Shown one piece after another: positions 18,456-24,703 of a stretch of 64,000 bases of DNA. Positions within the stretch are counted from its first letter, which is position 1; every line of letters starts with the position of its first letter. The position numbers and the translations under genes are program-made. The notes under the pieces were generated by a model. That model did no database searches, was not told the origin of the DNA, and saw nothing but the letters and a program-made list of their open reading frames with translations. Origin of the DNA: a virus (Duplodnaviria; Caudoviricetes). The stretch spans positions 143,795 to 207,794 of IMG/VR virus record IMGVR_UViG_3300031994_000006; one strand, 5' to 3'.

Positions 18456-18541
18456 GGCAGGCTATGCGGTGCCGATACTTCTGCGGTGGCTGAACACATT
18501 CGACTGTAAATCGAACTTAAAACGGCCCGTAATCCCCTGCT
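18456..18541 (+). ncRNA. Y-RNA-like scaffold copy 1 (Tyr GTA anticodon-arm insert)
   Basis: GGCTAT...TACTTCT stem enclosing TTCGA-CTGTAAA-TCGAA. Confidence 0.6.
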
Positions 18542-18549
18542 TGTCTCTA

Positions 18550-18641
18550 ATAAACGGCTATACTCGGCGGCTACTTCTGCAAGCTGTAGTCAGCGCCTGA
18601 TTCGTAATCTGGAGAAACGCCCGCCGGTCCTTTCCGTTTAT
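18550..18641 (+). ncRNA. Y-RNA-like scaffold copy 2 (Thr CGT anticodon-arm insert)
   Basis: GGCTAT...TACTTCT...TTTCC enclosing CCTGA-TTCGTAA-TCTGG. Confidence 0.6.
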
Positions 18642-18649
18642 CCTATACA

Positions 18650-18721
18650 TGCGGCTATGTCATCCGTTACTTCTCAAAGAATGATCTGCAACATCGTGTC
18701 CCACGGATGACTTTTTCCGCA
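18650..18721 (+). ncRNA. Y-RNA-like scaffold copy 3 (Cys GCA anticodon-arm insert)
   Basis: GGCTAT...TACTTCT...TTTCC enclosing TGAT-CTGCAAC-ATCG. Confidence 0.6.
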
Positions 18722-18743
18722 GTTTTACGTATAATAAACGACT

Positions 18744-18816
18744 GGTCCGGTAGCTCAGTGGATAGAGCGACTGCCTCCTAAGCAGTAGGTCGCGGGTTCG
18801 ATTCCCGCCCGGATCA
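18744..18816 (+). tRNA. tRNA-Arg(CCT)
   Basis: Cloverleaf, loop CTCCTAA. Confidence 0.92.
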
Positions 18817-18818
18817 CT

Positions 18819-18901
18819 AAACGGCTATCCGGCATGCTACTTCTCAGCTCGATAAAGAATGTAAAGGGTACATGCTATTCCGCTTGCCGGGTTTTCCGTT
18901 T
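18819..18901 (+). ncRNA. Y-RNA-like scaffold copy 4
   Basis: AAACGGCTAT...TACTTCT...TTTTCCGTTT. Confidence 0.55.
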
Positions 18902-18908
18902 TCCATAT

Positions 18909-18983
18909 GTTCCCAAGGGCGATATAGGTCGAGCCACAGGACTTTCGATCCTGAAAAAGTGGGTTCGATTCCCACTGGGAATA
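18909..18983 (+). tRNA. tRNA-Glu(TTC)
   Basis: Cloverleaf, loop CTTTCGA. Confidence 0.85.
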
Positions 18984-18989
18984 CTCAAT

Positions 18990-19063
18990 GCTCCCATAGG
19001 CGAACTGGTTAAGCCGTCACACTCTCAATGTGGAGATTCCGGGTTCGAGTCCCGGTGGGAGTA
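18990..19063 (+). tRNA. tRNA-Glu(CTC)
   Basis: Cloverleaf, loop CTCTCAA. Confidence 0.88.
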
Positions 19064-19146
19064 CGCAAAGTCCCGGCTGGGCCTGCTGTTCATGCAGGAC
19101 TTAGGGGCCGGCGCCGTGGGGCCACCGTCAAAAACCCCACTCCTTC

Positions 19147-19221
19147 GGGGCGTTAGCTCAGTCCGGTCAGAGCACCTGCTTTGCAAGCAGGGGGTCGACG
19201 GTTCGAATCCGTCACGCTCCA
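19147..19221 (+). tRNA. tRNA-Ala(TGC)
   Basis: Cloverleaf, loop TTTGCAA, G3:U70. Confidence 0.92.
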
Positions 19222-19341
19222 CGAAAGGGAAAGCGTGTAGAAACCGGCGGCGGCCGGCGGAGCCTCAGGCAGGATATCCCCTCGGCATAACGGACCGGCT
19301 CTGACCGGTACCATGCCGTCAGTCTTTGGTCCTGTCAACCT

Positions 19342-19422
19342 GCCGGAATGGGACAGTGGTCGACTCCATCGGTATCGTAAACCGACTCGAAAGACACGGC
19401 GGTTCGAATCCGCCTTCCGGCT
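19342..19422 (+). tRNA. tRNA-Thr(CGT) with 12-nt variable arm
   Basis: Cloverleaf, loop ATCGTAA. Confidence 0.82.
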
Positions 19423-19427
19423 CCTAA

Positions 19428-19556
19428 GGCAGGCTATGGCCGCTGCTACTTCTCCTTAGCGGAGTACGCGAGAAGGCTCAGCGACGTGATTCATTGCACG
19501 TGTACCGGGGTTCGAATCCCCGCCCCGCTGTCAGTCGTCACGGTCTGTTCCCTGCC
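19428..19556 (+). ncRNA. Y-RNA-like scaffold copy 5 enclosing a whole tRNA-like cloverleaf (19458-19530)
   Basis: GGCAGGCTAT...TACTTCT...TTCCCTGCC; inner cloverleaf has an 8-nt loop ATTCATTG. Confidence 0.6.
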
Positions 19557-19565
19557 CCTGTACAG

Positions 19566-19666
19566 TCCGGCTATCCGCCTGTGGTTACTTCTGAAGCTGG
19601 TTACTCGTAGGTTCGAATCCTGCTTTTTCCGCCATGGGAAAAAAGTCACCGCACGGTCTTTCCGGA
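19566..19666 (+). ncRNA. Y-RNA-like scaffold copy 6 (T arm + loop-closed acceptor minihelix)
   Basis: GTAGG-TTCGAAT-CCTGC then TTTTTCC-GCCATG-GGAAAAA inside the GGCTAT/TACTTCT/TTTCC stem. Confidence 0.6.
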
Positions 19667-19776
19667 TTTCCATAAGCGTTCAGCCGCCCGGGCAGGTCAC
19701 ATACAGGCGACAAGCCCCGTGACTCCGGACGGGCCTGCGCGTTTAACGGTTATATACGGAAACCAAAGACATATCA

Positions 19777-22983: not shown

Positions 22984-23048
22984 CTCAGCCGGTTCAGAGC
23001 ACCTGGCCTACAACCAGGGGGTCGGCGGTTCGAATCCGTCCGGGAACA
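22974..23048 (+). tRNA. tRNA-Val(TAC)
   Basis: Cloverleaf, loop CCTACAA (C33). Confidence 0.88.
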
Positions 23049-23055
23049 CAGACGC

Positions 23056-23129
23056 ACGCCCGTAGCTCAGCGGATCAGAGCGCCGGACTCCGGATCCGGA
23101 GGTCGCGGGTTCGAGTCCCGCCGGGCGTA
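23056..23129 (+). tRNA. tRNA-Arg(CCG)
   Basis: Cloverleaf, loop CTCCGGA. Confidence 0.92.
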
Positions 23130-23143
23130 CGGATATATACACC

Positions 23144-23848
23144 ATGATAAAATCAGTTCAATACTGTTTACATTGCGGTAAACCTTTGAATAAGACACAG
23201 AAAAAATTCTGTTCAAGATCTTGTTCAGCATCATTTACGAATAAGGGAAAAATTCACTCAGAGTCAAGCAGACATAAATGCAGTGAATCTGTAAAACGTA
23301 TCCGTAGGCATACTGAAAGAATCTGTAAAGTATGCGGATGTTCTTATTATTATGTCAAACATATATCCACTAAGATTTTCTGTTCTCATAAATGTTTTGA
23401 ATATTATAAATCACATAAGAATGAATTTCTTTCACCTGATTCAATCAGGCGGATGTCAGAAGGCGGACGGAAGAGCATGGATATACAAAAAGATTCCAGG
23501 AGATCCAGAAATGAAATAGAGTTCTGTTCATTATGTGAGGAAAAATTCGGTACAGCTGCAGTTTTGCATAATATACCTTACTTTAATGGATGGGATGCTG
23601 ATGTTATTATACCTGAATTAAAAATAGCGATATTATGGAATGGTGCCTGGCACTATAAACAGATATATGATAAAAGTTCATTGATTCAGATTAAGAATCG
23701 TGATAACATAAAAATATCTGAAATCAAAAAAGCAGGATTTATTCCATATGTTATTAAGGATTTGGGAAAGGCAAATTCTGAATTTGTCAAAAATCAATTT
23801 AATATTTTTTGTAAATGGATTGATGACCTTTCAGAATCTGTGCATTAA
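23144..23848 (+). CDS. putative homing-type endonuclease (Zn-finger repeats + Vsr/PD-(D/E)xK-like C-terminus)
   Basis: CLHCG..FCSRSC and CKVCG..FCSHKC repeats; DADVIIPELKIAILWNGAWHY; visibly AT-rich. Confidence 0.65.
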   Translation: MIKSVQYCLHCGKPLNKTQKKFCSRSCSASFTNKGKIHSESSRHKCSESVKRIRRHTERICKVCGCSYYYVKHISTKIFCSHKCFEYYKSHKNEFLSPDSIRRMSEGGRKSMDIQKDSRRSRNEIEFCSLCEEKFGTAAVLHNIPYFNGWDADVIIPELKIAILWNGAWHYKQIYDKSSLIQIKNRDNIKISEIKKAGFIPYVIKDLGKANSEFVKNQFNIFCKWIDDLSESVH

Positions 23849-23863
23849 ATATATAAATAGTTT

Positions 23864-23880
23864 AGTTCTTTGACTTATTG
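23864..23880 (+). promoter_or_regulatory. rrn boxA-like site
   Basis: AGTTCTTTGACTTATTG ahead of the Met/Met/Ala/tmRNA run. Confidence 0.6.
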
Positions 23881-23890
23881 AAACCTATAT

Positions 23891-23975
23891 AGCGGGATGG
23901 TGTAGTTGGTAACACAACAGCCTCATAAGCTGTGGACAGATAATGCTTGCGCAGGTTCGAGTCCTGCTCCCGCAA
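23891..23975 (+). tRNA. tRNA-Met(CAT), 1:72 mismatch, 17-nt variable arm
   Basis: Loop CTCATAA, canonical T arm. Confidence 0.75.
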
Positions 23976-23987
23976 CATAATTAACAT

Positions 23988-24059
23988 CGCGGTGGTGGTA
24001 GCAATGGTAGCTCGCAAGACTCATAATCTTGAGACGTGGTTCGAATCCAACGACCGCAA
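23988..24059 (+). tRNA. tRNA-Met(CAT), initiator-like C1:A72, imperfect T stem
   Basis: Loop CTCATAA; CGCGGT/ACCGCA acceptor. Confidence 0.6.
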
Positions 24060-24064
24060 CAAAG

Positions 24065-24142
24065 ATTCGGCTATTGGTTGGATTACTTCTGTAAACTTCT
24101 TAACCATGACATCCAGGAATTCATCCTTCCGTCTTTCCGAAT
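24065..24142 (+). ncRNA. Y-RNA-like scaffold copy 7
   Basis: ATTCGGCTAT...TACTTCT...TTTCCGAAT. Confidence 0.55.
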
Positions 24143-24238
24143 TGTTCTTTCCGGGGATGACGACATGTACGGCAACCGGTTGCCGTGAAACAGGTCCGTC
24201 TGATGACGTTTGTCCGGTGACGCATGTCCACCCGGGGT

Positions 24239-24336
24239 TTCCGGCTATCGGCCAGATTACTTCTATGCAGCGGGCGTTGACCGTCCGCGGCAGACCATCT
24301 TACACAGTCTTGTAACATCTGTCTGTATTTCCGGAG
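24239..24336 (+). ncRNA. Y-RNA-like scaffold copy 8
   Basis: TCCGGCTAT...TACTTCT...TTTCCGGA with two internal hairpins. Confidence 0.55.
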
Positions 24337-24340
24337 TTTT

Positions 24341-24414
24341 GGGGTATTAGCTCAGTTGGCCAGAGCGCTTGCTTCGCATGCAAGAGGTCGACGGTTCGAA
24401 TCCGTCATGCTCCA
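24341..24414 (+). tRNA. tRNA-Ala(CGC)
   Basis: Cloverleaf, loop TTCGCAT, G3:U70. Confidence 0.92.
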
Positions 24415-24415
24415 C

Positions 24416-24568
24416 TTTGACGAATGGCTATTGTACAGCATACTTCTCCAAAGTATGTTTCCAAGAGGCAGGTCGCGGGTTCGAATCCCGTCCGTCCCCA
24501 ACGGGGACGTAGCTCAGCGGTTCAGAGCGGCATCTATTACTGGGCTGTACGGCTTTCCAGGAGTCAAG
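24416..24568 (+). ncRNA. Y-RNA-like scaffold copy 9 with circularly permuted tRNA domain (YrlA-like)
   Basis: T arm, then CGTCCCC-AAC-GGGGACG closed acceptor, then D arm, inside the GGCTAT/TACTTCT/TTTCC stem. Confidence 0.7.
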
Positions 24569-24574
24569 GCAAAC

Positions 24575-24703
24575 ATATCCGGCTATTCGGGAGGATACTT
24601 CTGAGGGAATGTAGTGTCGCCGGTTCGAGCCCGGCTATTTCCGTGGGAAATATGGCGCAGGTGGTAGCGCATACGTGTATGGCCTGCTGGGGTTTCCGGA
24701 TAT
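24575..24703 (+). ncRNA. Y-RNA-like scaffold copy 10 with circularly permuted tRNA domain (YrlA-like)
   Basis: ATGTA-GTGTC-GCCGG TTCGAGC CCGGC-TATTTCC GTG GGAAATA-TG-GCGC AGGTGGTA GCGC-A-TACGT. Confidence 0.7.

Follow-up and report, generated by a model that had tools for sequence, protein, structure and literature searches.

A phage tRNA operon carries ten copies of a two-module RNA

To our knowledge, Ro60 with its Y RNAs is the only established ring-shaped RNA-surveillance protein that is steered by modular RNAs mimicking tRNA, and its function in bacteria is poorly understood. The YrlA and YrlB Y RNAs of Ro60/Rsr (PMC4201824; for Ro60 of the Thermus phage phiLo, PMC12135203) consist of two modules, a terminal-stem handle and a tRNA-imitating module, and a Y RNA tethers Ro60 to the nuclease PNPase (PMC4201824). 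Here, we describe ten elements with the same two-module plan in a window of 64,000 nucleotides (the whole stretch of DNA that was analysed), which forms the terminal 64 kb (positions 143,795 to 207,794) of the 207,794-base IMG/VR virus record IMGVR_UViG_3300031994_000006, a tailed phage genome estimated to be 76% complete. In each element a constant part, termed the handle below, carries a variable insert, its cargo. New here is a ten-copy array built into a tRNA operon, in a 208-kb record from which the gene of the protein that accompanies such RNAs elsewhere is absent. We think it likely that the elements are genes for small non-coding RNAs of an apparently undescribed family, in which the handle putatively docks a Ro60-like protein with a TerD domain, and the cargo would tether this protein to factors that recognise tRNA, or decoy them.

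The ten elements are given below. The E values are those of covariance model R1, which, like the underlying alignment A2, comprises 45 short RNAs from other genomes and no sequence from the present record.

Element 1: 18456..18541, + strand; 3 nt past tRNA-Met; anticodon-arm look-alike (5-bp stem, loop CUGUAAA, anticodon position GUA); R1 E 0.19
Element 2: 18550..18641, + strand; inner stem with a bulged U; the cargo includes an almost perfect mimic of an anticodon arm (loop UUCGUAA, CGU); R1 E 0.0027
Element 3: 18650..18721, + strand; shortest copy, with a perfect 9-bp inner stem; anticodon-arm mimic (loop CUGCAAC, GCA); R1 E 4.5e-5
Element 4: 18819..18901, + strand; 1 nt past tRNA-Arg(CCU); no tRNA piece recognised in the cargo; R1 E 4.4e-4
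Element 5: 19428..19556, + strand; the cargo is an entire tRNA-like cloverleaf, its parts in normal order and its anticodon loop 8 nt long
Element 6: 19564..19668, + strand; the cargo is a T arm plus a loop-closed acceptor stem (the "top half" of a tRNA), without a D arm; R1 E 2.9e-5
Element 7: 24064..24143, + strand; 5 nt past a tRNA; no tRNA piece recognised in the cargo; R1 E 4.9e-4
Element 8: 24239..24336, + strand; two-hairpin cargo, with a G+C-rich stem of 7 bp in one hairpin; tRNA-Ala(CGC) 4 nt further on; R1 E 0.0018
Element 9: 24424..24560, + strand; circularly permuted tRNA cargo, running from the variable loop through the T arm and the acceptor stem (with a closing loop of 3 nt) to the D arm
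Element 10: 24575..24703, + strand; second circularly permuted tRNA cargo; outer stem of 8 bp

The ten elements are structured RNAs with a constant handle

The handle consists of an outer stem of 5-8 bp ending in GG/CC, an internal loop in which CUAU faces a U-rich 3' strand (UUU in most copies), an inner stem of 6-9 bp, and the single-stranded sequence UACUUCU, after which the insert of 38-105 nt begins; this consensus was present in 10/10 copies. In element 9 the outer stem has just 3 bp, plus an additional 7-bp helix outside it (24407-24413 pairs with 24565-24571). The pattern GGCTAT-N6-14-TACTTCT occurs ten times in the window, on the + strand only, against 0.00 occurrences in 100 shuffles, and these are exactly the ten positions named in a preliminary description of this DNA made from the sequence alone. 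No further copy was found by the pattern in the rest of the 207,794-base record, which continues for 162 kb on the upstream side of the array and for 39 kb on the downstream side, and relaxed criteria did not add any. The same description had taken three sequences as fixed: GGCTAT and TACTTCT are indeed so, while the 3' motif, given there as (T)TCC, is in fact UCC in element 1, UUCC in element 5 and UUUCC in the other eight copies.

The nested layout of stems that differ in sequence and still pair, also claimed there, was borne out by cofolding and permutation tests alike. The 5' and 3' arms of the same copy cofold with a mean energy of -19.7 kcal/mol, compared to -11.4 kcal/mol for foreign arms, and the own 3' arm is the best pairing partner in 9/10 copies. 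The observed sum of own-arm pairing was reached by 0/100,000 permutations, with the same outcome when the inner stem alone was used. Three or four Watson-Crick pair types are used at each of positions 2-4 of the outer stem, and the stems also accept G-U pairs. The bases conserved in all ten elements are confined to the unpaired junctions. Since the stems diverge yet stay complementary, it can be concluded that the ten elements are structured RNA under selection and not a DNA repeat. Element 3 folds with a z score of -3.2; the spacer RNAs between the elements fold no better than shuffles.

Seven of the ten cargos imitate pieces of tRNA

Imitation of tRNA is visible directly in elements 1, 2, 3, 5, 6, 9 and 10, whose cargos comprise two permuted tRNAs, one whole tRNA-like fold, one minihelix of T arm and acceptor stem, and three anticodon-arm look-alikes. 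The preliminary description had ascribed tRNA-mimic cargo to the whole set, which is right for these seven and not for elements 4, 7 and 8. In elements 9 and 10 the anticodon stem connects the two ends of the permuted tRNA to the handle. ARAGORN reports positions 19457-19532 of element 5 as a tRNA of unknown identity. Elements 1 and 3 display 5-bp hairpins with 7-nt loops that obey the anticodon-loop rule (U at position 2, purine at position 6), and the mimic in element 2 has a single stem mismatch. The idea that the cargos are recent copies of the tRNAs of this phage was rejected upon comparison.

Phage tRNAs are known to counter tRNA-cutting defences, an example being T5 tRNA-Lys, which neutralises PARIS (PMC11464382). 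The elements and tRNAs of this type are both found in phage tRNA clusters, and both present anticodon arms of the sort that such nucleases recognise. However, those tRNAs are complete and decoding, whereas here an anticodon arm or a tRNA body is grafted onto a handle that is not tRNA, and the product cannot decode. The anticodon arms and whole tRNA bodies displayed by RNAs of this family offer a directly testable clue to what the system targets, namely factors that recognise tRNA.

In other genomes the same handle accompanies a single protein gene

A first scan of IMG/VR with the pattern, which has 14 fixed bases, returned mostly single chance matches and was informative only after a stem filter. 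One phage contig from the pattern search carried three tandem handle copies directly behind an open reading frame (ORF) of 690 residues. Searching IMG/VR with this ~690-residue protein, referred to below as the partner, yielded 46 phage loci, and handle copies on the same strand adjoin the partner gene in 37/46 of them by the pattern scan, or in 39/46 with R1 matches added. In alignment A2, 11 of the 13 pairs show compensatory changes; pairing occupies 90.2% of the cells, compared to 59.8% after shuffling, and the covariation score is 0.762, compared to 0.209 for shuffled alignments (0/500 reach the observed value) and 0.11-0.14 for slid controls.

We assessed the linkage between RNA and protein in two further ways. 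When R1 was run over whole genomes, 12/12 matches in three complete bacterial genomes (2.7-6.9 Mb) and 59/60 matches (E <= 1e-3) in 20 whole phage records lay at the partner locus, the remaining one being 27 kb away. A scan of IMG/VR for tandem handles that was blind to the partner gave 16 contigs, in 15 of which the partner gene adjoins the array; the one other contig, 5 kb long, breaks off at the array. As the whole-genome scans and the partner-blind scan agree, the linkage in other genomes is solid and independent of how the loci were found. A solitary possible orphan copy (L088/L106) was discarded, its R1 E value being only 0.03. At five loci (L168-L170, L172 and L176) a partner protein with 30-34% identity has no handle RNA within 4 kb, by pattern or R1; their RNAs may use a handle that is too divergent for R1. 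The L176 record holds one handle copy 27 kb from the partner gene.

The cargo of most family members is a 25-nt hairpin. A hairpin resembling an anticodon arm was found in 22/71 inserts, compared to 7.0 +/- 2.4 in shuffles, and the commonest display family-wide is a Lys-type UUU loop. This enrichment fits an interaction with anticodon-directed enzymes, and nothing more is claimed for it. The sequence of the internal loop tracks the protein subfamily: CUAU, CUAC or CCAT opposite a U-rich strand goes with the ~690-residue type, and UCAA opposite AAUUA with a Bacteroidia type of ~750 residues, whose RNA handle reads GG-UCAA ... UUACUUCA ... AAUUA-CC. It is possible that this match constitutes a recognition code. 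Members of the ~750-residue subfamily occur in two replicons of Prevotellaceae, one of Segatella hominis and a large one of Prevotella sp. oral taxon 299 str. F0039; among 401 sampled Bacteroidia genomes, about 2% have the ~750-residue type and about 1% the 690-residue type.

In a Bacteroidia genome (L186:3650-4743, - strand) and in the Segatella hominis replicon (L198:2740-2890), a tRNA in normal order has a handle where its anticodon loop would be, and this handle comprises an inner stem, the AAUUA/UCAA loop and a short closed outer stem; this arrangement is the circular permutation of elements 9 and 10. In L186 the whole RNA cassette is duplicated and the acceptor stem has a G3-U70 pair, the identity mark of alanine.

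All ten elements of the present window carry the CUAU/UUU form of the internal loop, the version that goes with the 690-residue protein, so their partner should be of that type. Model R1 detected six of them (2, 3, 4, 6, 7 and 8) at E 2.9e-5 to 2.7e-3 and element 1 at E 0.19, matched element 9 in part only and missed elements 5 and 10, with inserts of about 90 nt or more. The latter is expected, since R1 was trained on 25-nt inserts. The elements agree with the family found beside the partner in their handle consensus, their same-strand tandem arrays and their tRNA-like cargos. They differ in forming a ten-copy array among tRNA genes, away from a partner gene, and in having G+C-rich stems and larger cargos. 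This is the first case that we have found in which handle RNAs lie apart from the protein gene and inside a phage tRNA operon.

We did not find a description of the handle-RNA family or of the partner-protein family in the literature, and Rfam 15 has no model of it; a 2026 preprint on three bacterial tRNA mimics was considered and concerns other motifs. The handle-RNA family is widespread and apparently undescribed.

The partner is predicted to resemble Ro60 in shape

The ~690-residue partner has >800 relatives at E < 1e-5, which are annotated as "hypothetical protein" and belong to no Pfam family; a weak match to the TerD Pfam family was seen in 1/12 members. An AlphaFold2 model from a 25-row alignment reached a pLDDT of 89.7 and a pTM of 0.86. 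A TerD fold spans residues ~459-639 of this model (Foldseek probability 1.0; Z 12-14.3 with an rmsd of 2.4-3.0 over ~150 residues). We compared the whole model with 48,161 representative chains of the Protein Data Bank (PDB), without Foldseek pre-filtering. After TerD, the top three structural matches were all Ro60 proteins and the sole long ones (Z 9.1-9.9 over 265-311 residues), whereas the next match had Z 7.2 over 98 residues:

Frog Ro with RNA (1yvp): Z 9.9, 311 residues
Deinococcus Rsr (2nvo): Z 9.1, 265 residues
Thermus phage Ro60 (9l5y): Z 9.1, 294 residues

The partner thus appears Ro60-like in shape, homology being unproven. If the model is right, the family resembles the Y RNA/Ro60 pair in a further respect, as its RNA genes elsewhere likewise adjoin the gene of a helical, ring-type protein shaped like Ro60. 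In contrast to Ro60, the partner includes a beta-sandwich domain of the TerD type, and no similarity to TROVE could be detected in its sequence. In the handle family and its Ro60-shaped TerD partner we seem to see the Ro60/Y RNA design in a second, widely distributed version.

A proposed role, and the partner gene missing from the record

In the explanation that we favour, each RNA combines a constant handle with a variable module for display, which in many cases mimics a portion of a tRNA. The handle is most likely the docking site of the ~690-residue Ro60-like/TerD protein, because handle RNAs elsewhere are encoded directly beside that one protein. On the model of the Y RNA that links Ro60 with PNPase, the display module would bring the protein to tRNA-recognising factors or serve to decoy these factors; candidate targets are tRNA-cutting defence nucleases, tRNA modification enzymes and repair enzymes. 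As the partner gene does not lie in the 208 kb, the RNAs would use a partner encoded either by the host or in the ~24% of the phage genome that the record lacks. Lying in the tRNA operon, apart from the protein gene, such RNAs may be used by phages together with their tRNA sets to protect translation.

Several points weigh against this explanation. Expression and processing of the elements, and binding of the handle to the protein, are predictions. No tRNA feature was recognised in the cargos of elements 4, 7 and 8, and four copies were missed or barely scored by R1. By sequence, the partner family has no match in the PDB and no similarity to Ro60/TROVE; the predicted likeness to Ro60 is at the level of the fold only, where a Z of about 9 is not decisive for helical repeat proteins. 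It is for these two reasons, indecisive Z and absent sequence similarity, that we speak of resemblance in shape and not of a proven homologue. The partner was not found in the 207,794-base record by the single protein, by a 12-row or by a 25-row profile, and hhalign of the 59 ORFs of the record with at least 350 aa against it gave a best probability of 1.1%; in a positive control the same profile found the partner in 4/4 other phage records. Relatives of this phage, identified through its DEDDh exonuclease and a 438-residue protein, are all fragments. Five of them (7-60% complete) carry tRNA arrays and tmRNA, with neither handle RNAs nor the partner, so the phage lineage offers no support from conservation.

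Possible, if rather unlikely, is that the phage carries the RNA half only, and that its handle RNAs load onto, reprogram or titrate a Ro60-like/TerD protein of the host. This would be an RNA-only hijack or counter-defence, comparable to RNA anti-CRISPRs, in which the tRNA-like cargos would redirect or blunt a tRNA-acting system of the host. Phages may then deploy handle RNAs against a host-encoded partner.

The elements are spaced like tRNA genes within one probable transcription unit

The window contains 41 tRNA genes and one tmRNA gene, all on the + strand, as determined with ARAGORN and Rfam. The elements are separated from tRNA genes or from one another by gaps of 1-22 nt, with a single exception of 95 nt, and this spacing resembles that of tRNA genes in an array. 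The second block of handle RNAs is followed directly by the tmRNA gene and then by the only strong terminator of the region, the first strong stop 3' of the elements:

25184-25630, + strand: tmRNA gene (72.6 bits)
25735..25767, + strand: intrinsic terminator (9-bp stem and U run), behind the tmRNA gene

The terminator at 25735 probably ends the transcription unit that carries the elements. Because the spacings are 1-22 nt and no terminator precedes 25735, the elements are probably cotranscribed with the tRNAs in one long tRNA/tmRNA transcript, from which they would be released by the same end-processing as the neighbouring tRNAs.

This close spacing within one transcription unit would also suit a role in punctuating the tRNA operon or in its processing (for instance as entry sites for nucleases, as small ribozymes or in antitermination) without a protein partner of their own, and the conserved bases in the junctions are reminiscent of ribozymes. 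We regard such a role as improbable. Rfam at curated cut-offs found only the tRNAs and the tmRNA in the window, with no ribozyme, GOLLD/ROOL, cis-regulatory or other family matching the elements; moreover, most of the 41 tRNAs have no handle element beside them, and the family elsewhere adjoins a protein gene and not tRNA arrays.

The elements are not YrlA Y RNAs

The preliminary description had labelled the elements as YrlA-like Y RNAs of Ro60. Were they true YrlA-type Y RNAs, their protein would be a Ro60 (Rsr) with a TROVE domain, whose gene would lie in the host or in the part of the phage genome that the record lacks. In favour of this, elements 9 and 10 have the permuted tRNA-like topology of YrlA and give partial YrlA matches, and TROVE proteins exist in some Bacteroidales, the control genome of B. 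thetaiotaomicron being positive. Several different RNAs per genome are a feature of both systems. A YrlA-type domain (T arm, D arm and loop-closed acceptor stem) is present in elements 9 and 10 and partly in element 6, which lacks the D arm, but not in the other seven.

The Rfam model of YrlA (RF02553; 114 positions, gathering cut-off 69 bits) gave partial, sub-threshold matches under permissive settings in elements 9 (24468-24531, 29.1 bits) and 10 (24611-24674, 27.4 bits) and nothing above noise in the other eight. Both matches span only model positions 23-85, that is, the tRNA-like core. An ordinary junction of two adjacent tRNAs scores 22.3 bits on the same model, and matches of 27-29 bits therefore carry little meaning. 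The handle itself differs from that of YrlA in sequence and shape, with its CUAU/UUU loop and UACUUCU. The motif GNCGAAN0-1G, which lies on the 5' strand of YrlA and is implicated in Rsr binding (Chen et al., PMC4201824), is absent from all ten 5' arms, none of which contains CGAA. Furthermore, the cargo is here often an anticodon arm alone, and the RNAs are part of a tRNA operon, in a record that lacks a partner gene.

A Ro60/TROVE gene had been reported as not visible in the window, and the search for TROVE (PF05731, E <= 1) was likewise empty for the whole 207,794-base record, while control genomes were positive; the TerD Pfam family also had no match in the record. In other genomes the same handle accompanies a different protein, one that is not TROVE by sequence. 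We thus consider an identity with YrlA very unlikely, and the YrlA/Ro60 label is withdrawn. The architecture proposed with it, one constant handle showing exchangeable tRNA-like modules, is retained, because the handle recurs with covariation in many genomes, elements 9 and 10 share the YrlA topology and the usual neighbour is Ro60-shaped.

The permuted tRNA cargos are unlikely to be precursors of functional tRNAs

Permuted tRNA genes have a described counterpart in the red alga Cyanidioschyzon merolae, and the order of the halves there, with the 3' half upstream of the 5' half, fits elements 9 and 10. The elements could hence be precursors of functional tRNAs, that is, permuted or interrupted tRNA genes from which the handle, as an intron-like segment, is excised before religation. 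Such a reading would draw on the permuted tRNAs of elements 9 and 10, the whole tRNA-like fold of element 5, the handles that replace the anticodon loop of a normal-order tRNA in the Bacteroidia genome and the Segatella replicon, and a weak match to an RNA-ligase family elsewhere in the record. Nevertheless, elements 9 and 10 carry the handle, and not an anticodon loop, at the junction, where a 7-nt anticodon loop could not be formed, and their acceptor stems are closed by 3 nt only. A tRNA-like cargo of this kind is found in just 3-4/10 elements, and in most members of the family the cargo is a 25-nt hairpin; RtcB or an enzyme of the splicing type was not found in the record; and the fixed linkage to a Ro60-like gene elsewhere would be left unexplained. 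We therefore hold that a precursor role is highly improbable, and retain the docking of a Ro60-like/TerD protein as the likely function of the handle.

That the elements are DNA-level repeats (miniature mobile elements or recombination sites) with incidental RNA structure is scarcely credible: they are multi-copy and clustered and have inverted-repeat ends, but their stems vary with pairing kept and G-U tolerated, covariation is strong across the family, every copy lies on the tRNA strand, and conservation is limited to unpaired junction bases.

Neighbouring genes and minor observations

One protein gene lies within the tRNA operon, ~110 nt past element 6:

19777-20349, + strand: gene of a DnaQ-like DEDDh 3'-5' exonuclease

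A functional link between this exonuclease and the array was considered and found unsupported, as just two of the partner loci, those of Segatella (L198:5723-6217) and L176, have a neighbouring 3'-5' exonuclease, and the exonucleases there are barely similar to that of the window (27% identity over 83 residues).

Outside the window, a 380-residue ORF (C1:9263-9826 of the record, - strand) matches RNA_ligase (PF09414) with 23.9 bits, below the cut-off of 27.

Upstream of element 1, two further features were noted:

18041-18115, + strand: ARAGORN tRNA of unknown identity with a 2-base "anticodon" (gg), not in Rfam at the gathering cut-off
18116-18250, + strand: 135 nt between two tRNAs, with an acceptor-like closing helix, a T-arm-like hairpin (loop UUCGAAU) and a long insertion; z -1.9

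The second of these may be an oversized tRNA-like RNA that neither ARAGORN nor Rfam calls.

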